Shown here piece by piece: positions 1 to 60,292 of a DNA stretch of 64,000 nt (the stretch's first letter is position 1; every line of letters starts with the position of its first letter). Both the position numbers and the translations under genes were made by a program. A model generated the notes under the pieces. The model saw nothing but the letters and a program-made list of their open reading frames with translations. It was not told the DNA's origin and searched no databases. Source of the DNA: Candidatus Dojkabacteria bacterium (GTDB taxonomy: Bacteria > Patescibacteriota > Dojkabacteria > JAOAGR01); NCBI GenBank assembly GCA_026415655.1, contig JAOAGR010000002.1, forward strand, positions 131,237 through 195,236, given 5' to 3'.

Positions 1-825
1 TTTTCTAAAATTATAAAATTCATGCCCCAGTATTTTTATACATTCATAAGCTATTTGGTGAGGAGATATACATCCAAATTTCAGATGAGCCGATAACCTC
101 GATGTCCCATCTACAGATAAAAAGTCTCTTTTCGATTTATATTCATAAATTTTATTTTTTAAAAACTCATTCCATATTGTCTGAGCTTGTGTTTCTCCAC
201 CCGTAAAAATATTGCTTTTTTCATTTACATCAATTAGTTTAGATAAGTTATTTATTATTGGTATTCCCAATTTATTTAGTACATCTATGAATTCTTTGAT
301 TTTAGTTGGATTACAGAAATTAGGAATATAGTCCAAATTTAAAATGGATAAGTTGTGAGATAAACTGTTTAACCATTCAATTTTATATCTAGTAAAGACT
401 TTAATTGTTTGATTGTCTTTTGTTTCAATTTTCTCCGTATTTTGATCAAAAATCACATTAGAACAATGAATTTTCAGCTTATTTCCTAACAAATCATTTG
501 TTTTATGATCCCTTTTTTTAGAATAAGGGGAATAGTCACGGGATATATGTACTGAATTCACGTAATCTTTAAAGATTTTAAAGAATTCAATTGGATCATA
601 ATCAATGACTATTAAATCCGAACCAAGAGTACGTAGTTGGTTTTGCATATCAATCAGAGATTCAAATAAGAAATTATTTCTTTTTTTACAACTGTATTTA
701 ACATTTAACAATTTATTATCCAATATGAAAATCGGAATTAGGTTATCATAATGTTTATTTGCTTCAAATATCGTTTTATTGTACTTTAATCTCAAGTCAT
801 TTCTGAACCAAATTATATTAAACAT
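1..825 (-). CDS. Deoxyribodipyrimidine photolyase / cryptochrome family protein. Partial: the C-terminus runs off the window start.
   Basis: Manual minus-strand translation from ATG (complement 823-825) is open to position 1: MFNIIWFRNDLRLKYN... (photolyase N-terminal alpha/beta domain) ... TSRLSAHLKFGCISPHQIA (matches the TSRLSPYLHFGEISP-type FAD-domain motif). Absent from the ORF track, presumably because it is incomplete. Confidence 0.6.
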   Translation of the reverse strand, partial: MFNIIWFRNDLRLKYNKTIFEANKHYDNLIPIFILDNKLLNVKYSCKKRNNFLFESLIDMQNQLRTLGSDLIVIDYDPIEFFKIFKDYVNSVHISRDYSPYSKKRDHKTNDLLGNKLKIHCSNVIFDQNTEKIETKDNQTIKVFTRYKIEWLNSLSHNLSILNLDYIPNFCNPTKIKEFIDVLNKLGIPIINNLSKLIDVNEKSNIFTGGETQAQTIWNEFLKNKIYEYKSKRDFLSVDGTSRLSAHLKFGCISPHQIAYECIKILGHEFYNFRK

Positions 826-863
826 AAATTTTGCATTTTAATGTATAATCATAAAGATTATAT

Positions 864-1868
864 ATGTTTTGGAAAAGATTGATAGGCATTGATTTTGGAA
901 CTTATCACTCAAGGATTATATTACCTGAAGGAGTCATTTACGAAGAACCCACCTTGATCGCAAGGAACAAAAAACTAAATAAAGTTGTTGCAATAGGCTC
1001 CAAAGCAGAAGAATTACTAGGTAAAACTCCTAAGGATATTGAGCTTATCAGGCCAATAGAAAATGGAGTAATTACGAATTTACGTGCGGCAGAGTATCTC
1101 TTGCGTCATATGATTTCTACAGTAAGTGGAAATGTTATTTTTACCAAACCTACTATTGTTATAAATATTCCTACAAATGCTTCATCCGTTGAAATTCGAG
1201 CTTTGGAAGAGGTAGCTTTGGCCGCTGGAGCCGGCGATGTTCTGATATACCCAAATACATATTTAGCGGCTTTAGGATCTGAATTTAATATAGAAGAACC
1301 GTTTGGATTATTGATAGTAGATATTGGCGCTGGGACTACAGAAACTGCAATTATTTCTTATGGTGGCATTGTAATATCAGATACTACAAAAATTGCATCG
1401 CATACAATAAACGAAAACCTAAATAATTTTCTTAAAAAGAATTATGGGATAATCGTGGGTGACCTCATGCTTGATAAAATCAAACATCAGATTGCATCAG
1501 CTAGTGAAAACGTTGAAAATATTGAGGTGGAAATACGTGGTCGTGATATTAGTTCGGGACTTCCTAAAAGTATAAATATACGAACTTATGATATTCTCGA
1601 TGTAGTGACTATAGTATTAGAACAAATAATATTACATATAAAAGGCGTTCTAGAAAAATCTCCACCTGAGTTATCTTCGGATATAGTTGATACTGGTATC
1701 ATATTGACCGGTGGTGGTGCCAAACTTCGTGATATTGAGACAGTGATATTAAAAAGTCTTGGTTTACCTGTTGTTAAATTGGATGACGTCGATAAAGTTG
1801 TCTCAAATGGAATACGAACAATTGTGAAAGATTTGGATAGATATGCTTATAGAAATCGAGTCAATTGA
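864..1868 (+). CDS. mreB: Rod-shape determining actin-like ATPase MreB
   Basis: GIDFGT (phosphate 1), DIGAGTTETAIIS (phosphate 2) and ILTGGGAKLRDIE (adenosine motif). Length 334 aa. Confidence 0.85.
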   Translation: MFWKRLIGIDFGTYHSRIILPEGVIYEEPTLIARNKKLNKVVAIGSKAEELLGKTPKDIELIRPIENGVITNLRAAEYLLRHMISTVSGNVIFTKPTIVINIPTNASSVEIRALEEVALAAGAGDVLIYPNTYLAALGSEFNIEEPFGLLIVDIGAGTTETAIISYGGIVISDTTKIASHTINENLNNFLKKNYGIIVGDLMLDKIKHQIASASENVENIEVEIRGRDISSGLPKSINIRTYDILDVVTIVLEQIILHIKGVLEKSPPELSSDIVDTGIILTGGGAKLRDIETVILKSLGLPVVKLDDVDKVVSNGIRTIVKDLDRYAYRNRVN

Positions 1869-2194
1869 GATATTTTCAAAATATTAATTAAATCGAGAAT
1901 AAACATAGATTTCCAATGTGTTTTTTAATAAATCTACAATGTAATGAACAGTATAAGATGTTCTGTGTCAACGCTATAGTTCGTTAGTAAATCGACAAGA
2001 ATTTATTTAAGAGATTCATTACCTCGGTTTATTAACATCAATTTCAAGAAAAGAACAAAAATAGACACAGTGAGGTATTAACTCGTTAGATATTCAAAGC
2101 AATTGACAGATACTAAACGAATGAAATTTATAACAAAACAACAATATATACTCTCTTACATTTTTATTTGTTTTAACTTAGAGTGAATAGATAA

Positions 2195-2881
2195 TTATGA
2201 TAACTGCATGAATTCTGATTTTGTAATTTTTACAGATGGAGTCATAGTCGTTTTGATATGGATTGAGAATATATCACTAAAAATCCCAGGTGTTGATGTT
2301 TTTATCTCTTCTATAATTTTTAATAAATTTTCTCTAAGTTTATCTTTTCCTTGTGAGACTTTACCGAATACTATATTTATTACTCCTGTTTTATCCTCTT
2401 TAAAATTTTTTCTTCCTTGCTTAAATTCTTTTACTGCATTTGATATATCTTGTGTTACAGTACCATTTTTGGGATTTGGCATGAGCCCCTTGGTGCCTAG
2501 CGCTTTACCAAGTTTGGCGATCTTAGACATCACATTGGGATGCGCTATGACTATGTCAAAATCAAACCAATTATCATTTAAAATTTTATTTATATATTCA
2601 TCCAGCCCAGCATAATCAGCACCAGCTTTTAAAGCTTCTTCTGCTTCCTTAGGCTCAGCAAGCACCAGTATTTTGGTTTCTTTGCCAAAACTATGTGGAA
2701 ATACAACACTTATTTTATACGGTTGTGGATTTTTGTTTGACCTTTTTACTGCGATCTTTAACTCCACCGTTTGATCAAATTTATAATTATTTATTTTATC
2801 AAGTACAGATAGATATTCATCTAAACTTTTAGTTGTAGATATGACTTCGCTATTTAATTTATATTTTTTTGATATTTTCAT
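2195..2881 (-). CDS. rplA: 50S ribosomal protein L1
   Basis: KFDQTVELKIAVK and GKALGTKGLMPNPKNGTVT motifs typical of the L1 family. Directly downstream of L11. Confidence 0.9.
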   Translation of the reverse strand: MKISKKYKLNSEVISTTKSLDEYLSVLDKINNYKFDQTVELKIAVKRSNKNPQPYKISVVFPHSFGKETKILVLAEPKEAEEALKAGADYAGLDEYINKILNDNWFDFDIVIAHPNVMSKIAKLGKALGTKGLMPNPKNGTVTQDISNAVKEFKQGRKNFKEDKTGVINIVFGKVSQGKDKLRENLLKIIEEIKTSTPGIFSDIFSIHIKTTMTPSVKITKSEFMQLS

Positions 2882-2892
2882 AGCATTTTTAA

Positions 2893-3318
2893 TTATTCAA
2901 CGATTTCTATACCCATATTTTTGGCTGTTCCTATGACTGTACGCATAGCAGCTTCTATATCTTTCGTATTTAAATCAGGTAATTTTTGCTCTGCTATTTC
3001 ACGTACCTGCGCCATTGTTAATTTACCTACTTTATTTTTGTTTGGTTTATCTGAACCTTTTTCAGTCTTTAGAACTTTTTTGATAAGAGCAGATACTGGA
3101 GGAGTTTTTAGTTGAATATCAAATGTTCTGTCCTCATATATAGTAACTATTGCAGGTACTACAATGTCACCCATATGAGCAGTTTTATCATTGAACTCTT
3201 TTACAAATTGTCCAATATTAATACCAGTCGCACCTAATGCTGGACCTAATGGCGGTGCTGGAGTTGCTTTACCAGCCGGTGCCTGTATTTTTTTTATCAA
3301 CTTTATTTTTTTAGCCAT
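2893..3318 (-). CDS. rplK: 50S ribosomal protein L11
   Basis: The N-terminus MAKKI...IQAPAGKATPAPPLGPALGATGINIGQFVKEFN is diagnostic for L11. Confidence 0.92.
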   Translation of the reverse strand: MAKKIKLIKKIQAPAGKATPAPPLGPALGATGINIGQFVKEFNDKTAHMGDIVVPAIVTIYEDRTFDIQLKTPPVSALIKKVLKTEKGSDKPNKNKVGKLTMAQVREIAEQKLPDLNTKDIEAAMRTVIGTAKNMGIEIVE

Positions 3319-3716
3319 GATAAGGTTGTTATGCGGAAGTATACTATATTAATTAGATTTTGAAAATGTCATGAGTCATATTTTTATAGTATTTTAAATT
3401 AAATCAAGTTTATAGTAATGTAATCTCAAGTATGATCAACTGTAAATTTAATATTTAATAAACTGAGAACTGAGAATGAATCTTGAATGATCTATTTAAT
3501 TAATTATCAAAAATTTAGATATTTTTGGTTGGTGTATAAAAATGGAACTTTAAATTATTTATGATTGTAAATCTAGTTTGCAATATGAATTTTATAAATC
3601 AATTCTTCTGTATTCGTTTGCTCAGATATATTTGATTCGATATTTTCTATAAATTCATCAAAAAATACCTATTTTATTTTATAAATTTTATTCTTTTTAT
3701 ATTTAGTCCACCCTTC

Positions 3717-4079
3717 TCAATATGGTGTTTTTTTATTTTTCTTGTATTTGTCGAAATAAAATTTCAGTTGACCGACGATTTTATTCTTTTTAGGATGCAT
3801 AAATGTGATAATAAAAAATTCTCTAAATTTTTTTATATTTGAAATTAAAATGTTAATTCTGAACTCATTTCGAAATATGTAAATATATTTTTCAAATATT
3901 CCACCTAAACATCCACTCACAGTATCAAATTTGAGATCTGTAAAATTTGCAATTAATCTACATATGAAGATAAAGTGGATTTCAAATATGTGAATCCAAA
4001 CAATGCCTGTATCATAGTTTTTGTGCTTTTTAATTTTAGTCTTTTTCTTATCCGTAGTATTGGGTAATAATCCAGACAA
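3717..4079 (-). CDS. Low-complexity K/I/F-rich hypothetical ORF. Uses a TTG start and may be a degraded remnant.
   Basis: Six-frame ORF only. No recognisable motif. It lies in the approximately 1 kb gap upstream of rplK where nusG/secE are normally found. Confidence 0.2.
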   Translation of the reverse strand: MSGLLPNTTDKKKTKIKKHKNYDTGIVWIHIFEIHFIFICRLIANFTDLKFDTVSGCLGGIFEKYIYIFRNEFRINILISNIKKFREFFIITFMHPKKNKIVGQLKFYFDKYKKNKKTPY

Positions 4080-4300
4080 TAAATCTAATATAGCGTATGA
4101 TTTATATTTGGGATTTGTCGGTATACCACGTTCATCCTTATAACATATTCCTAGAATCGGATGAATTTCTAAATCTTTATGTTTGAAAGAATCCTGATAT
4201 GCTATATAAAAACTGATCGGACATTACTCTTTGCTTCCTCCGCGGCTTTAAGTATCAAATTCAAAATATTCATTTTATTCGTATTTTATATATTAAATGT

Positions 4301-5023
4301 TCATACCTCGCCGGATACTTGTTGCTTTGAGTTAACAATAATAACAGTACCCGTTGGTAAATCAATCCTACCACATTGCATTAATTCGCTGCCGCTCGTC
4401 CGTAACAATTTCAAAGTAACAGTTATAACATTGTTGGGTACATCTATTTCTATGTCTGCATGAGCAAGTGGATGGGATAGTAGACTTGGCAATATAAGGA
4501 GCTTAGCAATGACACTATCAGGTTTATCATGTGTTCCCATATTAGAAATTGCAAACAAAATCGTAGCTGCGGATGGAATAGATCTTCCTAATACATCAAG
4601 GATGTTTTTTATCCAGATTTTGAATCCTATTTCACCCTCATGGCATGATAATGCTCCGAATACAGAAGCTAATGTACTGACTTCATCTGGAGTTGATAAG
4701 CACATAAAAATAGTTCCTTTACATCTATTAGCTCCTTCATTTGGGTGATTACCGCCTTCTTCATTTTGGCGATTACTACCATTTTCCTGTGCATTAGCGA
4801 CTTTGAAGCCTAGAGGGCTATTCATCTCTCTTCTAAATCTAAGAATGTCCTCTTCACTGGCCGATCTCATTTCCCCAATATATTTATCTCCTTCAAATCC
4901 CAATGGACCTATTTGACGCGGATCGGGGATTCGAACCCCTTCATATAATATATAAGTTTTACCAGTACCACGAAAAGCGTCAAGAATCGCACGTTCAATA
5001 TCTTGACTATATGCATGCGACAT
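4301..5023 (-). CDS. Hypothetical protein from a high-GC, atypical-codon family (a paralog of 38276..38773)
   Basis: 240 aa ORF with GC markedly above the surroundings (CGG/GCC/CCG codons). It shares ordered motifs with the 38276-38773 ORF: AYSQDIERAILDAF / SYAIDEQEIARVL; IPDPRQIGPLGF / VPHPCRIVLGPDGISF; FMCLSTPDEVSTL / FTGCSTEDGRNLL; ISNMGTHDKPDSV / AAFGENDSPLACP. Confidence 0.55.
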   Translation of the reverse strand: MSHAYSQDIERAILDAFRGTGKTYILYEGVRIPDPRQIGPLGFEGDKYIGEMRSASEEDILRFRREMNSPLGFKVANAQENGSNRQNEEGGNHPNEGANRCKGTIFMCLSTPDEVSTLASVFGALSCHEGEIGFKIWIKNILDVLGRSIPSAATILFAISNMGTHDKPDSVIAKLLILPSLLSHPLAHADIEIDVPNNVITVTLKLLRTSGSELMQCGRIDLPTGTVIIVNSKQQVSGEV

Positions 5024-5155
5024 ATAATTATATTATATAGTATTTTTTCTGATTTGTCTAATCCTGATAATAATTGGTATCTGTAACATAGCAATAGTTC
5101 TATTAATTATTCTATAGTATTTACTCGATTACGTGTATGCTAAAGATTATAATAT

Positions 5156-5806
5156 TTAATTAATTAAATTTTTAGTGCATATTTCACTAAGTGGACACTT
5201 GTCACAATTTGGTTTTCTTGGATGACAAAAATTTCGCCCTATAAGTATCAATTGTTTTGATATTTTTGTCCAATATTTCTTCGGAATTTTATTCATTAGA
5301 TCTTTTTCTATTTTTTCTGGATTTTTCTCATTCGTGAATCCTAATCTATAAGATACTCTTTTTACATGTGTATCAACAACTATTCCTACAGGTTTATTGA
5401 AGTAATCACATAGTATGACATTTGCTACTTTGCGTCCTACTCCTTTGAGTTTTAATAAATCTTCTATATTGTTCGGCACCTTACCACCAAAATCGGCCTC
5501 AATTATTTTAGCCGTTTCTATGATATGTTTTGACTTTGTCTTGTAATAGTTAATTTCTTTAATAATATCCATAACTTCGGATAAATCAGCTTTTGCAAGT
5601 GATTTATGATCAGGAAAGCGTGCGAATAATTTTGGTGTGACTTGATTTACTTTATTGTCTGTTGTTTGTGCGGATAAAATAACAGCGATTAAAAATTCAA
5701 AAACATTTTTGTGATGTAGAAAATGTGGTACATCAGGGTATATACAATTCAATATTTTTATTATTTTTTTAATCTTATGGTTACTTAGCACATTATAATC
5801 TAGCAT
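5156..5806 (-). CDS. nth: Endonuclease III (DNA glycosylase/AP lyase)
   Basis: LSAQTTD helix-hairpin-helix region, LKGVGRKVANVIL, and the C-terminal 4Fe-4S cluster CHPRKPNCDKCPLSEIC (C-x6-C-x2-C-x5-C). Confidence 0.88.
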   Translation of the reverse strand: MLDYNVLSNHKIKKIIKILNCIYPDVPHFLHHKNVFEFLIAVILSAQTTDNKVNQVTPKLFARFPDHKSLAKADLSEVMDIIKEINYYKTKSKHIIETAKIIEADFGGKVPNNIEDLLKLKGVGRKVANVILCDYFNKPVGIVVDTHVKRVSYRLGFTNEKNPEKIEKDLMNKIPKKYWTKISKQLILIGRNFCHPRKPNCDKCPLSEICTKNLIN

Positions 5807-7119
5807 TAAGGTGTCAATCTGTTTAAGTCTCTAGGAAAGAGTGTTGCCTCTCTAATATTTTTTAAACCGAGTAGATTTTGTGTAAGTCTTTGTAATCCCA
5901 TTCCAAAACCACCTTCTGTTGGTATTCCATATTTATGCATCATAAGATAACCTTCAAAATCATCAGGATTTAACCCTTTTTCTTTTAATCTTTCTATTTG
6001 ATGTTGGTATCTGTTTACTCTTTGACCACCAGTTACTATTTCAGATCCATTTCCTATAAGATCAAAAGATTCACTAAGTTCCGGATTATCTGGATGTGGA
6101 TAGGTATAAAAAGGACGTTTTGATAATGGATAATGTGTTACAAAAACAAAATTAGAATGATGTTCCTTTGGTCCCCATTCAGTACTAAGCCATTTTTCTG
6201 CTCCGGGTGATAGATCCGGTTCCATAGTTTCGTCTATGCCGGTGTATTCCTTATATATTTCTAGGGCTTGTCTCAGTGTAATTCTAGGGAAAGGCTTATC
6301 TTCTGGTACTATAGGTAATGTTGTGTTGAGGATTTCTAGTTCCTTCACAAATTCCTTTTGTATCTTCATAATTATATGTCTAACGACATTTTCGCAATGG
6401 TACATTAGATCTTCAATATTTTCTATGAAACCTAACTCAAACTCAAACTGATTGAATTCCGTTAGATGCCTTGTAGTCGCTGATTTTTCTGCTCTGAAAC
6501 TATATGAGAGTCCATAAACACCTTCATAGACTCCCATCATGATTTGTTTATAAAGTTGTGCGGATTGAGGTAAAGTTGCCTCTTTGCCAAAGTAATCAAG
6601 TTTAAATAGTTCCGCTCCCCCTTCTGATGATGCTCCAGCAAGTATTGGAAAAATTATCTCAGTGAAACCTTGACTACGCATGTACTCGCGGTAACCTTCT
6701 ACTATACCAGCTTGTATTTTAAAAATGGCTCTTAATTTTTGATGTCTTAGTGTAATAGGACGATAGTCAATTATTGTATCAATATGAGCATCTATTTCAT
6801 CCTTATTAATCTCAACAGGTATCATGTCATACACAGGTGATATAATGTGTATTTCATTAACATCTAATTCTATGCCAGACTCTTGTTTATCTGAAGCTCG
6901 TACTATACCCCTGATTTTTAATACGGATTCGACCTGCAAATCTTTAACCTGATTAATTAATTCTTTATTGCTGAGTACACATTGGATAATTCCAGTACGA
7001 TCTCTAAGGATTACAAATGCTATCTTACCTAGAATACGTATTCTATGCATCCAACCAGCTATTATCACTTCCTGATCTATGTGTTTATTTAAATCTGATA
7101 TTAAAACACGATTTTTCAT
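5806..7119 (-). CDS. aspS: Aspartyl-tRNA synthetase, archaeal/eukaryotic type 2, probably non-discriminating
   Basis: N-terminal OB fold; class II motif 2 FRAEKSATTRHLTEFNQFEFE; motif 3 GGFGMGLQRL; and the C-terminal ...FPRDLNRLTP signature of type-2 AspRS (compare eukaryotic ...FPRDPKRLTP). Shares 1 nt with nth. Confidence 0.82.
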   Translation of the reverse strand: MKNRVLISDLNKHIDQEVIIAGWMHRIRILGKIAFVILRDRTGIIQCVLSNKELINQVKDLQVESVLKIRGIVRASDKQESGIELDVNEIHIISPVYDMIPVEINKDEIDAHIDTIIDYRPITLRHQKLRAIFKIQAGIVEGYREYMRSQGFTEIIFPILAGASSEGGAELFKLDYFGKEATLPQSAQLYKQIMMGVYEGVYGLSYSFRAEKSATTRHLTEFNQFEFELGFIENIEDLMYHCENVVRHIIMKIQKEFVKELEILNTTLPIVPEDKPFPRITLRQALEIYKEYTGIDETMEPDLSPGAEKWLSTEWGPKEHHSNFVFVTHYPLSKRPFYTYPHPDNPELSESFDLIGNGSEIVTGGQRVNRYQHQIERLKEKGLNPDDFEGYLMMHKYGIPTEGGFGMGLQRLTQNLLGLKNIREATLFPRDLNRLTP

Positions 7120-27402: not shown

Positions 27403-28320
27403 TTAATTATAAGTAGATTTTAACCAGTTACTGTATCTGTTGTCATTCCCTCTCACAGCATTAAAGTATTTTTCTTGAATTAATTTTGTTGTATTGCCTA
27501 TTTCACCGTTACCAACTTTGCGGTGATCAATTTCTATAACGGGTGTAACCTCAGCTGCGGTACCAGTCATGAATGCCTCATCGGCTGCATATAGTTCACT
27601 TCGTGCTATTTTACGTTCTTCAAAGACAATTTGTAGGTCATCAGCCAACTGTTTCACCGCATTGCGGGTGATTCCTTCGAGTATATGATCCGAATACTCT
27701 GGTGTTATTATTTTGCCACTTCGTACTATGAATATATTTTCGCCTGATCCCTCGGATACGTATCCTGCAGAATTTAGCATTACAGCCTCATCAAATCCAG
27801 ACAAAATTGCTTCTGTCTTCGCTAATGCGCTATTTACATATCCACCAGCCACTTTCCACCTTGATGGAATAGAGTTATCATCATTTCTAACCCAAGAGGA
27901 TGTCTGCACACGAATACCTTTTGAAGTATCAAGATATTTACCAAATCTGTAAGTATATATAGTGATGGTAGCTTTATATTCTATTAACTTTGGAGTAAGT
28001 GCTAAATCAGAAAAATAAACTAATGGCCTTATGTAAACATCTTCTTTGATGTTGTTTTTTCTTAGTAATTCCAGAGTTATATCGACTAACTCTTCAGGTG
28101 TATATTCAATATTCATAAACATAGATCTTGCATTACGGACTAATCTCGTATAATGTTCTTTCCCAAAAAGTAAAAATAGATCTTTCTTTTCTTCGTTCCA
28201 ATAAGCTCTTATACCTTCGAATATTGCAGTTCCATAATGCAGCGAATTGGTTTTTACGCTTATCATCGCATTTTCGGCTTCAACAAACTGATCGTTGAAA
28301 AATATGTATTCTTTGTTCAT
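27403..28320 (-). CDS. ilvE: Branched-chain amino acid aminotransferase (PLP fold type IV)
   Basis: FEGIRAYW motif near the N-terminus, class IV aminotransferase core, EGSGENIF. Length 305 aa. Confidence 0.8.
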   Translation of the reverse strand: MNKEYIFFNDQFVEAENAMISVKTNSLHYGTAIFEGIRAYWNEEKKDLFLLFGKEHYTRLVRNARSMFMNIEYTPEELVDITLELLRKNNIKEDVYIRPLVYFSDLALTPKLIEYKATITIYTYRFGKYLDTSKGIRVQTSSWVRNDDNSIPSRWKVAGGYVNSALAKTEAILSGFDEAVMLNSAGYVSEGSGENIFIVRSGKIITPEYSDHILEGITRNAVKQLADDLQIVFEERKIARSELYAADEAFMTGTAAEVTPVIEIDHRKVGNGEIGNTTKLIQEKYFNAVRGNDNRYSNWLKSTYN

Positions 28321-38275: not shown

Positions 38276-38773
38276 ATGCGCGAAGACTTTTCCTACGCAA
38301 TCGATGAACAAGAGATTGCACGTGTTCTTTGACGATCTATAGATTACTCTGTTCCTCACCCATGCCGTATTGTATTAGGTCCTGATGGAATAAGTTTCTA
38401 TGATACCAATCCTAAATCTGTTACACCTGATGGAAGTAATGAGAATGGTAAAATAGAGTTTACTGGTTGTAGTACAGAAGATGGACGTAATTTACTGGAA
38501 TTATTTAAAGTTATGGTGCAATCAATAGCGGCGGGTTATATTCAATTACCAGATTTAAAGGAAGTAAAGGTTATTAGCACTATTGAGGTAGTTGAAGGAG
38601 CATATCTATTAGCATGCGCAGTCGCAGCATTTGGAGAGAACGATTCACCATTGGCATGTCCAGTAAGATATACAGACAGAATAGAAACGTTGTATAGAGG
38701 GTATGAAGTACCAAACACTTATGAGGCCAGGGTAGACAACAACGGATTTATTCTTCATTTAAAGTATAAATAA
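38276..38773 (+). pseudogene. High-GC-family hypothetical gene (paralog of 4301..5023) interrupted by an in-frame TGA at 38330-38332. The track calls only 38513..38773.
   Basis: ATG 38276 gives MREDFSYAIDEQEIARVL, then TGA, then 60 stop-free in-frame codons (RSIDYSVPHPCRIVLGPDGISFYDT...) joining the called ORF. Paralog similarity spans both sides of the TGA. Elevated GC. Confidence 0.55.
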
Positions 38774-43050: not shown

Positions 43051-43614
43051 TCATTGATTTGGGTTGAATGGTAAAAAATTGTAGGCTTTAGATAACTTTT
43101 TTATTGCCTCAGGAGAAACTTGATCTGGAGTAGCCACGTCGATAATTATCAAGTATGGTGGACCATAATCAACTAGTGATTGAGCTATCCTTAATTGATT
43201 GTCTGCTCCATATGTTCGGTTTCTTGTTAAGCCTATTGCTGCGGTAAAGTTATTAGATTCGGCATTGTAATATTGATTCCCAAATACGTTTTTCAATATT
43301 GCAGCAATGCTGATTTTATTATTTTTCAGAAATTTTTGTATAGTTGTTTGTATGGTTGAAACTCTAAATCCACATAAAGGTGAAAATCCAGTAAAGGGAT
43401 TCCTCAGAGTATGTACTTGTTCTTTTATTCTTCTATTAAAATCTTGTTCATCAACAAGTGCTAGACTATAAGTACAGTCTTGTATATCAGGATAATATAA
43501 TACATGAGGTTCTGTTTTAGCGGATATCTCAGCTAGGATTACTGCGTCGCCCCAATATAACAAATCATCTACATCTGGCCCACTACCCAAAACTGCAAAG
43601 TCGTACAACCCCAT
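43051..43614 (-). CDS. Hypothetical protein with moderately elevated GC. Possibly related to the 45429..46037 ORF and the high-GC family.
   Basis: 187 aa. The N-terminal LYDFAVLGSGPD (strand plus Gly-rich loop) resembles LFTIVFAGCGKF of 45429..46037. The C-terminal IIIDVATPDQVSPEAIKKL resembles IEIDVPNNVITVTLKLL of 4301..5023. Adjacent to tRNA-Cys. Confidence 0.45.
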   Translation of the reverse strand: MGLYDFAVLGSGPDVDDLLYWGDAVILAEISAKTEPHVLYYPDIQDCTYSLALVDEQDFNRRIKEQVHTLRNPFTGFSPLCGFRVSTIQTTIQKFLKNNKISIAAILKNVFGNQYYNAESNNFTAAIGLTRNRTYGADNQLRIAQSLVDYGPPYLIIIDVATPDQVSPEAIKKLSKAYNFLPFNPNQ

Positions 43615-45428: not shown

Positions 45429-46037
45429 CTATCTGGTTCGTCTTGTGAAGGCGCTTACGTAAATACAGCCTTGATATGGTGTATTGGGGATGTTTGGATG
45501 GGGTAGTACCTTAGGTGCGCCAAATGGGTCCTCTTTTCGTATGGCTTCATAGCTTTGTAATACCTCAGGTTTCAATTGTATTTCTTGCATTTGTTCTCTT
45601 AGTTTTTCTAGAGATGCCACGACTACCGGCTTATGGACCTCTTCAGGTGTGTATGAGTCCACAAATAGGGCGCCCTTAATTTGTCTCTGCAAGCCAATAC
45701 TTTCTAATAAGGGTGGAATATTGTCGCTCTGATCACCTGGAAGACAGAGTACATTCCGTGCCACAACGTAAATAGGGCCGGGATGTTGTGAGACTATTTG
45801 TCCAATTGCGTCGGAGAATGGTTGATTTGGATAGTATGTAACTTCCTTTAGTGAAGAATGATTGTCGATGTACAATCTGATAGCATGCAGCGGCATTTGG
45901 TTAATCAATTCCGCGTCATTAAAGGCTATACGGAACGACCCCTCTAATCCAAATATATTTTGCACCACGGCTACATAACCAATGTCAGATGGTGGAAATT
46001 TTCCACAACCTGCAAATACTATGGTAAATAAGTTCAT
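45429..46037 (-). CDS. Hypothetical protein, high-GC atypical-codon ORF, co-oriented with and immediately upstream of tRNA-Lys
   Basis: 202 aa with GC clearly above background. The N-terminal hydrophobic strand plus Gly-rich loop (LFTIVFAGCGKFPPSD) suggests a Rossmann-like fold. No assignable family. Confidence 0.45.
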   Translation of the reverse strand: MNLFTIVFAGCGKFPPSDIGYVAVVQNIFGLEGSFRIAFNDAELINQMPLHAIRLYIDNHSSLKEVTYYPNQPFSDAIGQIVSQHPGPIYVVARNVLCLPGDQSDNIPPLLESIGLQRQIKGALFVDSYTPEEVHKPVVVASLEKLREQMQEIQLKPEVLQSYEAIRKEDPFGAPKVLPHPNIPNTPYQGCIYVSAFTRRTR

Positions 46038-54031: not shown

Positions 54032-54097
54032 GGAGTAAGTTTAGCAGATTGGTAAAACCAGTTTGTAGTCTGATAAATATATAATAAAAAACTAAAT

Positions 54098-55078
54098 ATG
54101 TCTCTAACACGCATAACAGAAAATTTGAGAAAAATGTTTCAAGGTTACTCAGTAGTAAATGTTGCCAGTGCAATATTTGAAATGTTTTCAATCTTGATGC
54201 CATTGTGCTCTCAGAGAGACGATTCATCTGACAATAGATTCGCCTGGACGAGCATAGATATTTATTCTTGCCAACATAGAGATCAAGAAATTAAATTTGA
54301 TGGTGTTAAAAGGATGGGACTATTCCAAAGATTACATGCCGCCGGTATTGCAAGGATAGTATATACGTTAGAAGGATATGGTCCTGCTTTTTTTCATCCG
54401 GCCTTCAGCGTTAAGCCTCCACAACCATCATCAGAGGAAAGTGTTCATAATTATTATCTGTTACTCTATTTTAATCTTGGAATAAAAAATTTTGTGCTTA
54501 GATTTCCTATTGGGACTTTGCATATTGATTGTGGACCAATAAAACAGCTAGAGACCGGTAAATTAATAGAATTGAATCAAGATAGATTAAAAGAATTGAA
54601 TCAAGATAGATTAAAAGAATTATCAGATTTACTACAAGATCAAAGATACGCTGTACAATTAGGAAGAGCAGCAATATTACCTGGATTTAGGCGTAGAAAT
54701 GCTGCTTCTAGGAATCATGCAATGAATGTAAATGGTTCAGATACTGGTAATATTTATCAAAAAGTAGGAAGGTTTGTGCAATCATTATTAATTGATATTT
54801 CTTCGTCACAACCACAACAAATATTCATAGTTTCACTTATAAATAAAGGTAATCAAGGTTCTTTGAGTGGATTCAAGAGAGTAGTAAGGGCAGCATTAAA
54901 TCTACAAACTGATGATGGTTTTGATAATTACATATATGCATTGCAATCACCTGAAATACCGTATTCTTATAGACATTTTATGAGATATTTTAGTGATATT
55001 AATATACTTGCTGTTCCCAGTCGTACAGTGAATCCTTCACAACATGAACAAACTAATGTCTCTACCAACATTACATAA
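54098..55078 (+). CDS. Hypothetical protein with elevated GC; contains a 24-bp tandem duplication and may be distantly related to the high-GC family
   Basis: 326 aa. Internal repeat ELNQDRLKELNQDRLK encoded by tandem 24-mers. Weak resemblance (QEI...YTLEGYGPAFFHPAF) to YILYEGVRIPDPRQIG of 4301..5023. Confidence 0.45.
   Translation: MSLTRITENLRKMFQGYSVVNVASAIFEMFSILMPLCSQRDDSSDNRFAWTSIDIYSCQHRDQEIKFDGVKRMGLFQRLHAAGIARIVYTLEGYGPAFFHPAFSVKPPQPSSEESVHNYYLLLYFNLGIKNFVLRFPIGTLHIDCGPIKQLETGKLIELNQDRLKELNQDRLKELSDLLQDQRYAVQLGRAAILPGFRRRNAASRNHAMNVNGSDTGNIYQKVGRFVQSLLIDISSSQPQQIFIVSLINKGNQGSLSGFKRVVRAALNLQTDDGFDNYIYALQSPEIPYSYRHFMRYFSDINILAVPSRTVNPSQHEQTNVSTNIT
54569..54622 (+). repeat. Perfect tandem duplication of a 24-bp unit (gaattgaatcaagatagattaaaa x2, plus a partial third)
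   Basis: Seen directly in the sequence. In-frame (8-aa ELNQDRLK repeat) inside the 54098..55078 ORF. Confidence 0.9.
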
Positions 55079-57481: not shown

Positions 57482-58927
57482 ATGGATAGTGGAAGATTGG
57501 TAGATATATCAAAAAATTCTAACAATATTATCTTTATATTGCCAGAATTTGTCACTATAGACGTAGTTTCTGCTACATTACTTTTGGCAAGATTTTACAA
57601 AAATAATGGTAAAGAAGTCACCTTGGGGCATTCAGGTAAATTGGGCAAATATGCGGAGTATCTGATTGAATATGCTGGATTTAAGGTATCCGATATTAAA
57701 AAATCTATAGATCCAATATCTTATGTGGTGAAGATTAAAGATTTAAATGATCAGGTTTATGTTGGATATAAACAAGTTGATGATATTTTAGAAATATACG
57801 TAACCCCAGAAAATAAGGCTGTGGACTTTTCTAAAATAGTTTACACAAAAACCGGAGGAATATATGATACAAATATTTATTTAGGTTGTTCCGATATATC
57901 TGTTTTGGGAAGTATTTATACAGATTTTGCTGCAAAATATGAAAAATTTAATAATATACCAATAAATAAGAATAATTCTGACATAACATTGGCAGAATTC
58001 GTTTGGGAGTTAATAGTTTCAGAGGGTGCCCATTTTAGCGAAATTGATGCTAAACTGGTTGCTTATGGAATAATTTTCGGCACTAGATTTTTGCAAAATA
58101 TCCGATCAAATAGTACTTATAAATTTATTGAATCCTTACAGTCCATATATAAAATAAACTTAACAGAGATTATCAGTAATATATATGGTGATGATCTGGT
58201 TTATAAACTGAGGAAAAAAGTATATTCAAAAGCTGTGTTAGATAATGTGCGAAAAGCTGTCTATGTTTTAGTAAATACTGATGAACTCGAAAATATGGAT
58301 ATTGATCTTTTATTTTCTTTTTTCGTACTTTCTGATGGAATAAACACGATACTGGTAGAAATTGATGAGAAGTCTCTTTATTTTATCACAAACCGTAGTG
58401 ACCTAATTAATTTTAAATCACAGATAATTATCGATGGAATTAATTATATTTATCGTGAAAAATCGCACGAAGCATTGACCGACGTTATGAATTTTATATC
58501 TTATGGATTTAGTATTGCCCAGAATCAGGTAGTTGAAGACACAAAAAGTGTTGTAGAAGAAAATAAAGTATTTCAACAGTATTCGAGTATAACGCCAAGT
58601 ACATCTCAAACCCAAAACATAACAGATACAAAAACCAATTTTAATTATCACTCAGTTGATCAAACAGCACCACAACATATTTCTGAAAATACTGCGAACA
58701 TATATGATCATAGTTCATTTACGACACAATCGAATTCATTTAATAACCCATCCTATTCTTCAAATAATACCTCTGGATATGGCGCTTCAAATATATCAAA
58801 TAACAATCAGGCTAATGATCAAAGTCCTCCTTTTGTACCATCAAACGAGGTAGTCATAGATCCGAATGCAAAGCCATATTATGTACCAAATAGTTCTACT
58901 GCTTCTCCTTTTCAAAAGGCAAATTAA
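57482..58927 (+). CDS. Hypothetical protein, possibly a degenerate DHH/DHHA1 (NrnA-like) fold, with a Q/N/S-rich C-terminal tail
   Basis: N-terminal IIFILPEFVTIDVVSATLLLARFYKNNGKEVTL parallels the NrnA N-terminus (H-PDGDALGS...LGKEV) but lacks the DHH catalytic residues. About 100 aa low-complexity S/N/Q tail. Confidence 0.4.
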   Translation: MDSGRLVDISKNSNNIIFILPEFVTIDVVSATLLLARFYKNNGKEVTLGHSGKLGKYAEYLIEYAGFKVSDIKKSIDPISYVVKIKDLNDQVYVGYKQVDDILEIYVTPENKAVDFSKIVYTKTGGIYDTNIYLGCSDISVLGSIYTDFAAKYEKFNNIPINKNNSDITLAEFVWELIVSEGAHFSEIDAKLVAYGIIFGTRFLQNIRSNSTYKFIESLQSIYKINLTEIISNIYGDDLVYKLRKKVYSKAVLDNVRKAVYVLVNTDELENMDIDLLFSFFVLSDGINTILVEIDEKSLYFITNRSDLINFKSQIIIDGINYIYREKSHEALTDVMNFISYGFSIAQNQVVEDTKSVVEENKVFQQYSSITPSTSQTQNITDTKTNFNYHSVDQTAPQHISENTANIYDHSSFTTQSNSFNNPSYSSNNTSGYGASNISNNNQANDQSPPFVPSNEVVIDPNAKPYYVPNSSTASPFQKAN

Positions 58928-58981
58928 GAGATATTTACATCTTTGGAAAAAATGTCTATTCTATTATTAGAATAGACGCAT

Positions 58982-59542
58982 ATGAGTCGATCAAAAAATA
59001 ATAATCAAAAAGAGAATCTTATTTATGATTTGGTAGATTTGTCTTTGATTCCAGCCTTTCTTTTGATTCTAGCTAAAGTTGGGGGTATTGCTTTTTTAAA
59101 TTGGATTTTGAATTTGGATTGGAGAATAGTTCAGGATAACGGTTTGTTTATTAGTTTTAAGTTGACCTATCCCACCTTAGAGCAAGTTGTAATTGTTAAT
59201 TCATACTCAAATCTTTTTATGTATATTTGTATACTTGCGGGAGTTATGGTAGTTACTTCAAAGTCGATGCTTTTGAATCATAAAAAGGCTTCGCCATATC
59301 TTGTCTTGAAACTTGCAAAAATGGACTTGCTACATCTTTTGCAGACATCAATCAAAATTTACAAGGAAGTATTTGTATGGATATTATTTTTGATTGTTAC
59401 GACTGTTTATATATTCATATCATTCTTGTTAGAACTTAATTATGCTTGGATAGCTGGATTAACATTAGTAACAACTTTAGTCATTTTGTGGATTATCATA
59501 CAGAATATCGAAGAAGATGTTTTGTATACAAAATACAAGTAA
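58982..59542 (+). CDS. Polytopic membrane protein (4-5 TM)
   Basis: 186 aa, hydrophobic helices throughout. Confidence 0.5.
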   Translation: MSRSKNNNQKENLIYDLVDLSLIPAFLLILAKVGGIAFLNWILNLDWRIVQDNGLFISFKLTYPTLEQVVIVNSYSNLFMYICILAGVMVVTSKSMLLNHKKASPYLVLKLAKMDLLHLLQTSIKIYKEVFVWILFLIVTTVYIFISFLLELNYAWIAGLTLVTTLVILWIIIQNIEEDVLYTKYK

Positions 59543-59581
59543 CTAGAAATTTTTATAAAAATATTCTAAATTAGTGTAGAT

Positions 59582-60292
59582 ATGGAAAATGTAATACAAA
59601 AAATAAATAAAATTGGACATTATTTGAATATTTCATCAGAGTCATTCATGTTATTTGCTCTGGTGTGTATTTTTGCTATCCCTTTTGTAATTGCAAAAAG
59701 TATCGAGCCAGCTGTCCAAACAGATAATAGCTCTAATATTGCTTATATTTACGTACCCGTCAATAACACAAACACAAATCTTGCTGCAAATTCTGGACAA
59801 GGAAACACGACAGAGAATTCACAAAATCAAGAGATCTCTGATAACAATTTAGCTAGCAATGCTATCACACTACCAAATGTACTAGGTTTAATATTAGAAA
59901 ATAATAATGTAATAGCTGATCAGGCTTCACAAAGTTTGTTAAAAGTAAATCTTGTTGATGAACATGAATATATGTTTGATAAATTCGAATATAGCGTTAC
60001 TAGTGAAGAAGAGTATAGACTTAGAATATCTTCCGGTAAACAAATGGATGGTATTGAAATATTGAGAGTAGTAAATAGTTCTACTGAGTCACGTCTGTTT
60101 TCGGTGGATGTACGTAGTTTTTCGGGTGATATACAATTTATAAAATTGAAAGTAGGAGATGTAGCGATAAATATCTCTGATGTAGTTTGGCCTCAGTACT
60201 TTACTATAGAACCTACTCAGGAGGTATCGATATTTTTCTCATATTCATCAGTAAAACCATTTGACATTGACATCCAAATCAAAAACTATTAA
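59582..60292 (+). CDS. Signal-anchored secreted hypothetical protein
   Basis: 236 aa with an N-terminal hydrophobic anchor (FMLFALVCIFAIPFVIA) followed by an extracytoplasmic domain. Confidence 0.5.
   Translation: MENVIQKINKIGHYLNISSESFMLFALVCIFAIPFVIAKSIEPAVQTDNSSNIAYIYVPVNNTNTNLAANSGQGNTTENSQNQEISDNNLASNAITLPNVLGLILENNNVIADQASQSLLKVNLVDEHEYMFDKFEYSVTSEEEYRLRISSGKQMDGIEILRVVNSSTESRLFSVDVRSFSGDIQFIKLKVGDVAINISDVVWPQYFTIEPTQEVSIFFSYSSVKPFDIDIQIKNY

Follow-up and report, generated by a model that had tools for sequence, protein, structure and literature searches.

A singleton orphan gene in a divergent rplK–nth tract of a Candidatus Dojkabacteria genome

Results

A protein-coding orphan between rplK and nth

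We analysed a 64,000-nucleotide stretch of DNA (hereafter, the window) from a MAG of Candidatus Dojkabacteria (CPR/Patescibacteria). ORF A (MCX8034851.1, N3A71_00995), a singleton orphan coding sequence annotated as a hypothetical protein, occupies positions 4301–5023 on the minus strand, with 240 codons encoding 240 aa. It lies between rplK and nth, as described in an initial annotation of this DNA, and its neighbours rplA (2195–2881), rplK (2893–3318), nth (endonuclease III; 5156–5806) and aspS (5806–7119) are all on the same strand. GC content averages ~31% in the window; measured in 150-bp segments, it is 35–43% across 4275–5024 and 19–30% on either side, a modest but real GC island.

Since the GC islands of an AT-rich genome frequently turn out to be structured RNAs, we first tested whether the island could be a tRNA-like or tmRNA-like RNA, with the open reading frame incidental. 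An exact tRNA T-arm motif, GGGGTTCGAATCCCC, was present at 4923–4941 (minus strand), and the 11-mer GGTTCGAATCC occurred elsewhere in the window just in two real tRNAs. A weak match to mascRNA, a tRNA-like family, was centred on the GGGGTTCGAATCCCC hairpin, but its 23.9 bits fell short of the gathering score of 42.5. At the gathering threshold, Rfam returned only four tRNAs, all elsewhere in the window and in agreement with ARAGORN, and neither the tRNA model nor ARAGORN called anything at the island. The predicted fold of the GC-island segment was no better than that of shuffled sequences (z = −0.45), the chance of a 240-codon open frame at the GC content of ORF A was estimated at ~1e-7, and codon periodicity was strong in one frame alone. 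A structured RNA at the GC island was rejected on the Rfam, ARAGORN and folding results, and we regard it as scarcely credible.

Coding status was assessed with a codon model (in-frame codon log-likelihood) for which 40 other ORFs in the window served as the training set. ORF A scored z = −0.14 in its own frame, inside the core range, while all five other frames were negative, and its GC1/GC2/GC3 values were 0.49/0.42/0.26. With an own-frame score typical of core genes, negative scores in the other frames and GC1 > GC2 > GC3, ORF A is a genuine protein-coding sequence.

Between the nth stop codon and the ORF A start lies a 132-bp, AT-rich spacer (5024–5155, minus strand) that has no counterpart in any relative. 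It includes a sigma-70-like promoter site, TAGACA-17-TATAAT (5032–5060, minus strand), which matches the consensus at 11 of 12 positions, is the best of the region and ends 9 nt upstream of the ORF A ATG; the number of such sites in the region is not enriched compared with shuffles. This consensus match suggests that ORF A may have its own promoter, with a leader that would be very short or absent.

Within ORF A, a 24-nt tandem duplication (4732–4779) encodes part of an Asn/Glu/Gly-rich low-complexity linker (NRQNEEGG/NHPNEGAN) that lies centrally in the protein. No signal peptide or transmembrane segment was evident on inspection by eye. A single-sequence AF2 model of ORF A was unusable (pLDDT 38); taken as the low-confidence model that it is, it hints at an N-terminal region with helices and a C-terminal part rich in beta structure. 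The predicted product would be soluble and Lys-poor, with a low-complexity central linker.

ORF A matched only itself in a word-indexed search of 5.8e9 clustered proteins and in an exhaustive phmmer (HMMER) search of 1.84e9 cluster representatives. Searches against PDB sequences, phages, plasmids and IMG/VR gave no match, and Pfam, PHROGs, NCBIfam and PADLOC gave no domain. We found nothing in the Dojkabacteria literature that touches on ORF A or on the four further ORFs, B–E, with which the initial annotation had grouped it. ORF A is thus an ORFan, or taxonomically restricted gene, with no homolog outside a narrow lineage.

Relatives lack ORF A at this site

Relatives were retrieved with exact-sequence anchors (RplA, a 236-aa ORF and FtsH), yielding five conspecific assemblies from different samples (L030–L034; L046 is the L032 contig). 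All five span the site and read nth–gene X–rplK, across a gap of 1,224 bp that lacks ORF A; their gene X is intact, AT-rich and 235 aa long. A contig carrying the exact FtsH allele of the window was also without the ORF A tract.

In the congener L001 (Nth 79% and AspRS 93% identical), the order is aspS–nth–gap–rplK–rplA, with a gap of 1,144 bp and no ORF A. Local alignment with L001 found homology at window positions 5900→5171 and 4297→3200, and the 873 bp between these blocks, comprising ORF A and its 132-bp upstream spacer, had no counterpart in L001. A second congener, L026/27, shows the same arrangement. Both L001 and L026 carry a homologous 156–198-bp spacer at the ORF A position, and tblastn detected no ORF A remnant in either locus. 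The window, L001 and L026 genomes are roughly equidistant from one another, and a metagenome scan with Nth yielded no close relatives.

Empty-site alleles, which the initial annotation had proposed to look for, therefore exist for this locus: nth and rplK stand without ORF A in five conspecific assemblies and two congeners. The accompanying view that the ORFs were recently acquired rather than vertically inherited is borne out for ORF A, which has no counterpart in any of these genomes, but not for ORFs C and D (see below).

ORF A lies in a sharply bounded divergent tract

Comparison with L030 by 100-bp identity bins and mismatch positions placed ORF A inside a mosaic tract of species-level divergence at 2923–5363 (2,441 bp). 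Window positions 1–2922 are 100% identical to L030, with zero mismatches. Identity then falls to 81–91% at 2923–3373, across rplK, the sequence becomes unalignable by megablast at 3374–5168, and identity is 78–86% at 5169–5363, in the 3′ end of nth. From 5364 it is 100% again, with zero mismatches in 5364–6816. The tract ends within rplK and within nth, its divergence reaching ~400 bp into the former and ~200 bp into the latter, and inside it the window is equally far (83–89%) from L030, L001 and L026. Identity thus drops abruptly from ~100% to the inter-species level between two ends that lie in conserved genes, as in a mosaic import.

The divergent rplK allele (2893–3318, minus strand), at 81–91% nucleotide identity to its conspecific counterpart, differs from it by 46 synonymous and 4 nonsynonymous codon changes, which marks it as a functional ortholog from another species-level lineage and speaks against sequencing error. 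The last ~208 bp of nth (5156–5363, within the gene at 5156–5806 on the minus strand) also fall within the tract, and the Nth C-terminus differs from that of conspecifics. Gene X is present as a decayed allele (3588–4273, minus strand), in which three-frame translations revealed one frameshift and in-frame TGA and TAG stops; it retains ~40% amino-acid identity to the intact conspecific gene (E = 2e-38 when the window was searched by tblastn with L030 gene X).

Exact-sequence index look-ups found the RplK, ORF A and Nth alleles of the tract on no other contig, and the flanking RplA and MreB alleles on 7–8 contigs; the AspRS of the window had no match in an exact-sequence contig look-up. Other sharp patches with the same pattern occur at ~58.7–59.6 kb and as a micro-patch at 6817–6911. 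Two origins fit this pattern: an import by homologous recombination, with an unsampled congener as donor, or a jump of the assembly from one co-occurring population to another.

No signs of a mobile element

The initial annotation had interpreted ORF A and its supposed relatives as genes carried by a small mobile element or as a homing-type gene. Pfam, PHROGs, NCBIfam and PADLOC identified no domain in any of A–E, and specifically no nuclease, transposase or integrase. The gene X remnants, tested as a possible decayed transposase or nuclease, matched nothing in Pfam or PHROGs. No target-site duplication was found at the ORF A boundaries. The short flanking repeats that the initial annotation had thought worth inspecting came down to a single boundary inverted repeat (4283–4301/5151–5169), an AT-rich 19-mer pair with 79% complementarity, and a 10-nt direct repeat near ORF A that lies away from the boundaries. 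As element ends these repeats were rejected, being AT-rich and low-complexity or not at the boundaries.

ORF A is single copy within the window and in all fetched loci, and searches of phage, plasmid and IMG/VR DNA matched no relatives. Nor do the relatives offer a clean empty site, with an insertion alone and unchanged flanks: the ancestral spacer has been replaced and the flanking genes have diverged. With no nuclease, transposase or integrase domain, no target-site duplication and no phage, plasmid or viral copies, the cargo or homing interpretation does not hold.

ORFs A–E share composition, with no sign of common ancestry in sequence

The initial annotation had treated ORF A and ORF B (38276–38773) as paralogs and ORFs C, D and E as weaker relatives, all in gaps between housekeeping genes. 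The placement is correct at all five sites, the gaps other than that of ORF A being eno|cysS, rpoD/tRNA-Cys|next gene, tRNA-Lys|lepB and dnaE|HK. The kinship has no support in sequence: all-vs-all BLASTP gave E = 7.3 for A–B and, for the best pair, E = 0.35 (five-sequence database). No pair reached E < 0.01, the level that the initial annotation itself had taken as decisive. Smith–Waterman comparison with 300 shuffles gave z = 0.18 (p = 0.43) for A–B with standard gaps and z = 1.82 with permissive gap penalties, which let the collinear motifs highlighted in that annotation chain together. Across A–E, the best nominal p in 30 permutation tests was 0.04–0.06 and none survives, so that ORFs C, D and E show no significant resemblance to the supposed family either. 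The single-sequence AF2 model of the intact form of ORF B (pLDDT 36) was, like that of ORF A, unusable for fold comparison. By the BLASTP and permutation comparisons, A–E appear to be unrelated orphan genes, not a multi-copy family.

GC contents were 0.390 (A), 0.376 (B), 0.349 (C), 0.424 (D) and 0.332 (E), compared with 0.317 ± 0.033 for the other ORFs (n = 42). Described initially as high-GC, the group is so in part: ORF A is raised and D is the highest in the window, while C and E are unremarkable. GC3 was 0.261 in A, 0.241 in B and 0.369 in D (core, 0.232 ± 0.033), and it is the first and second codon positions that carry the GC excess of A and B, with GC3 host-like. The CGG, GCC and CCG codons that were said to make ORF A atypical occur once each in its 240 codons, about the number expected from core genes. 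Judged by synonymous-codon z-score (A, −2.2; B, −1.3; C, −0.35; D, −3.9; E, +0.36), D alone is a clear codon-usage outlier.

In-frame codon log-likelihoods for A, B, C, D and E (z = −0.14, 0.01, −0.46, −1.77 and −0.69, respectively) were within the core range and the five alternative frames scored negative for each; all five ORFs are real coding sequence. Their Lys content (0.037–0.048) is about half the core value of 0.079, and Gly, Ala, Pro and Arg are commoner than in core proteins. This amino-acid composition accounts for the raised GC1 and GC2, and it is composition, and probably not ancestry, that A–E have in common.

Five ORFs with five different histories

The orphan status of B–E was assessed by cluster look-ups, at 90% identity and by exact sequence, and by tblastn against the fetched loci. 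B, C and D fall in 90% clusters that hold near-identical sequences only, and A and E are singletons. Window positions 28275–48774 are collinear with, and 99.9% identical to, a conspecific (21 differences), which makes B, C and D stable genes of the species.

ORF B (38276–38773, plus strand), a species-specific orphan unrelated to A, was listed as an open frame in the initial annotation, but in this MAG it is interrupted by a TGA at 38330–38332 (W19*); conspecifics have TGG there and an intact product of 165 aa. It is missing from the congener, where the cysS|eno gap is 219 bp compared with 738 bp here. ORF C (43051–43614, minus strand) is a genus-level orphan, likewise unrelated to A, whose positional ortholog in the congener is 51–66% identical and frameshifted. 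ORF D (45429–46037, minus strand) is a very fast-evolving genus-level orphan; its positional ortholog in the congener has 120 aa and shares 29% identity with it. Given these positional orthologs in a congeneric genome, C and D are vertically inherited and fast-evolving, contrary to the initial denial of vertical inheritance. ORF E (54098–55078, plus strand) is a species-specific, indel-ridden orphan: among conspecifics the copy number of repeats and of poly-Q varies, and there is a split allele as well as one that has lost 349 bp, and the dnaE|HK gap of the congener holds an unrelated 542-aa orphan instead. A–E thus have five different histories.

Discussion

On balance, and with modest confidence, we favour the reading that ORF A is a real singleton orphan accessory gene, and that its tract came from an unsampled donor, a distinct species-level lineage within this Dojkabacteria genus, most likely by homologous recombination. 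Recombination through the rplK and nth flanks, the most likely route, would have replaced a resident segment carrying the intact 235-aa gene X with a donor segment carrying decayed gene X and ORF A. It is the sharply bounded divergent tract, with its ends inside rplK and nth, that argues for exchange through flanking homology and not for transposition or homing. We infer the direction of the exchange from 5-of-6 parsimony only. ORFs B–E would be separate orphans of different ages in permissive gaps between core operons. As for the role of ORF A, our best guess is that it may be a dispensable, fast-turnover accessory protein.

A tract with such ends could also have been stitched in during assembly. 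If the 2.4-kb tract, and the 58.7–59.6 kb patch with it, derive from a co-occurring congeneric population, then the true carrier of ORF A would be that other organism, as one of its ordinary genes, and this strain would not have it. The tract is known from this MAG only, no other contig carries its RplK, ORF A or Nth allele, and the contig that shares the exact FtsH allele does not have it. Its breakpoints fall in conserved genes, where an assembly graph would share k-mers, and the same MAG contains several such patches. Against this, an assembly that left the 100%-identical background and came back exactly to it, two switches in the space of 2.4 kb, would have had to find k-mers in common at either end despite ~85% identity, and patch lengths of 95 bp, 0.9 kb and 2.4 kb also fit natural recombination imports. 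We consider an assembly chimera unlikely, while giving it serious weight. An ancestral ORF A, lost once in the clonal ancestor of the conspecifics and independently in the congeners, with the other assemblies being the recombinants, is improbable. Distances do not polarise the exchange, since within the tract the window, L030, L001 and L026 all differ from one another by about as much, and the five other assemblies could be one clonal bloom. More events are needed on this account, however; L001 and L026 have a homologous spacer with no remnant, and the window is the odd one out at the second patch too.

The model of A–E as selfish multi-copy paralogs, carried by a mobile element or homing on their own, drew on genuine regularities: all five ORFs sit in gaps between core genes, A and B have empty-site alleles in relatives, a Lys-poor, GC1/GC2-rich composition runs through A–E, and ORF A is bounded by the weak AT-rich inverted repeat at 4283–4301/5151–5169. 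What counts against it is that no pair shows significant similarity, that neither nuclease, transposase or integrase domains nor a target-site duplication were found, and that the ancestral spacer was replaced, not interrupted, with both flanking genes diverged. In addition, C and D have positional orthologs in the congener, the stretch with B, C and D matches conspecifics in gene order and at 99.9% identity, and phage, plasmid and viral DNA hold no copies. At the level of sequence the model is already refuted, and we hold it to be highly improbable. Somewhat less remote, yet still quite improbable, is a broader idea in which A–E, gene X and the 542-aa orphan at the E site of the congener would form a coherent fast-evolving CPR class (for example, of host-interaction or conflict factors), or would have arisen de novo or been captured from an unsampled higher-GC partner. 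On this idea, behind the shared Lys-poor, GC1/GC2-rich composition there might be one common origin, or else a fold in common that escapes sequence methods, and ORF A would be a new allele that recombination had passed from one species to another.

Whichever route brought the tract here, this is ordinary accessory and orphan-gene turnover, in which ORF A is recently acquired and strain-specific or else an assembly import. The chief value of the analysis is a correction: an apparent selfish family in an AT-rich CPR genome becomes a set of unrelated orphans with composition-driven GC. It also shows very fast orphan turnover at fixed inter-operon sites within a small Dojkabacteria genus, with orphans ranging from strain-specific to genus-level and several copies decaying. 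The sister-species patches in the MAG point either to inter-species homologous recombination in a CPR bacterium or to a warning about mosaic MAG assemblies. Neither the turnover nor the patches will surprise specialists.

Among known systems, homing endonuclease genes and IS- or MITE-borne cargo resemble A–E in being small genes between housekeeping genes with empty-site alleles in relatives. They differ in that A–E have no LAGLIDADG, GIY-YIG, HNH or transposase domain, and ORF A is a single copy without terminal repeats or target duplication, its indel being a replacement with diverged flanks and not a clean insertion. Homologous-recombination imports, as in naturally transformable bacteria, are closer. 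The tract is known from a MAG contig alone, its donor is unsampled and an assembly artefact gives the same picture, but it shares with such imports a sharply bounded divergent stretch in an identical background, breakpoints in conserved genes, overwhelmingly synonymous differences in the flanking gene and a changed gene content inside. As for ORFans, many are AT-richer than their host, whereas A–E exceed their host in GC at codon positions 1 and 2 with GC3 host-like, and ORF A is unusual in being present in a single MAG of six conspecific assemblies. In other respects A–E resemble ORFans: they are short, have no known domains and no detectable homolog outside a very narrow lineage, occupy variable gaps between conserved operons and undergo rapid gain, loss and decay, as seen in the nonsense codon of B, the frameshifts of the C ortholog and the split and deleted alleles of E.

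The nth–rplK site

The adjacency of nth and rplK is, on the gene orders compared, specific to the genus-level group under study, because in a more distant Dojkabacteria relative (L028 / L029; Nth 65% identical) the genes after nth are a NUDIX gene and YebC, not rplK. Directly upstream of rplK lies gene X (window 3588–4273, (-)), an AT-rich gene of 235 aa without a match in Pfam, PHROGs or PADLOC. All five conspecific assemblies carry it intact (L030 8610–9317, for example), and stops and frameshifts interrupt it in the window and in the two congeners, L001 (10825–11529) and L026 (5884–6571). As these breaks fall at different positions in the three, comparison of the copies suggests a genus-level orphan that has decayed repeatedly and independently.

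The orphan ORF A contains two internal features. In its 5′ part, GGGGTTCGAATCCCC (4923–4941, (-)) is an exact tRNA T-arm motif, coding for EGVRIPD in the ORF A frame, and the 11-mer GGTTCGAATCC was found elsewhere in the window only in tRNA-Ser and tRNA-Cys. No tRNA or tmRNA was called at the motif and its fold was without significance; the motif is perhaps a relic, or there by chance. A 24-nt tandem duplication (4732–4779; copies 79% identical) codes for the low-complexity stretch NRQNEEGG/NHPNEGAN.

Further divergent patches

A second, sharp-edged patch at ~58700–59600, comprising the 3′ end of ORF 57482–58927 and the whole of ORF 58982–59542, was 82–92% identical to five conspecific strains, with identity values equal across all five. 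Within aspS, a 95-bp micro-patch (6817–6911) carried 7 mismatches. Both resemble the ORF A tract in pattern, and represent either recombination imports or mosaic assembly.

Other orphan genes and the dnaE|HK site

ORF B carries an in-frame TGA at 38330–38332 where near-identical strains have TGG (Trp19), and its NCBI annotation covers only an 86-aa downstream remnant (38513–38773); either the gene has recently become a pseudogene here or the TGA is an error in the consensus. In codon usage, only ORF D (45429–46037, (-)) was a true outlier, with a GC3 of 0.369 and a synonymous-codon z of -3.9. It has a positional ortholog in a congener, 29% identical, and appears from these sequences to be old at its locus yet extremely fast-evolving.

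ORF E (54098–55078) differs among strains that are ~100% identical elsewhere (the window and L036–L040). Many of the differences are nonsynonymous; the repeat ELNQDRLK is present twice or once, the poly-Q run varies in length, one allele (L038) is split into 92 + 185 aa, and another strain (L039) has a 349-bp deletion in the region, corresponding to window 54074–54422. In a congener, the dnaE|HK gap holds a 542-aa orphan (L044 917–2545, (-); GC 0.368) that is unrelated to ORF E and has tandem repeats of GSESYPSASAGT in its N-terminal part. Judged from the two loci, the occupant of this site is different in the congener (the 542-aa orphan) and in the window (ORF E).
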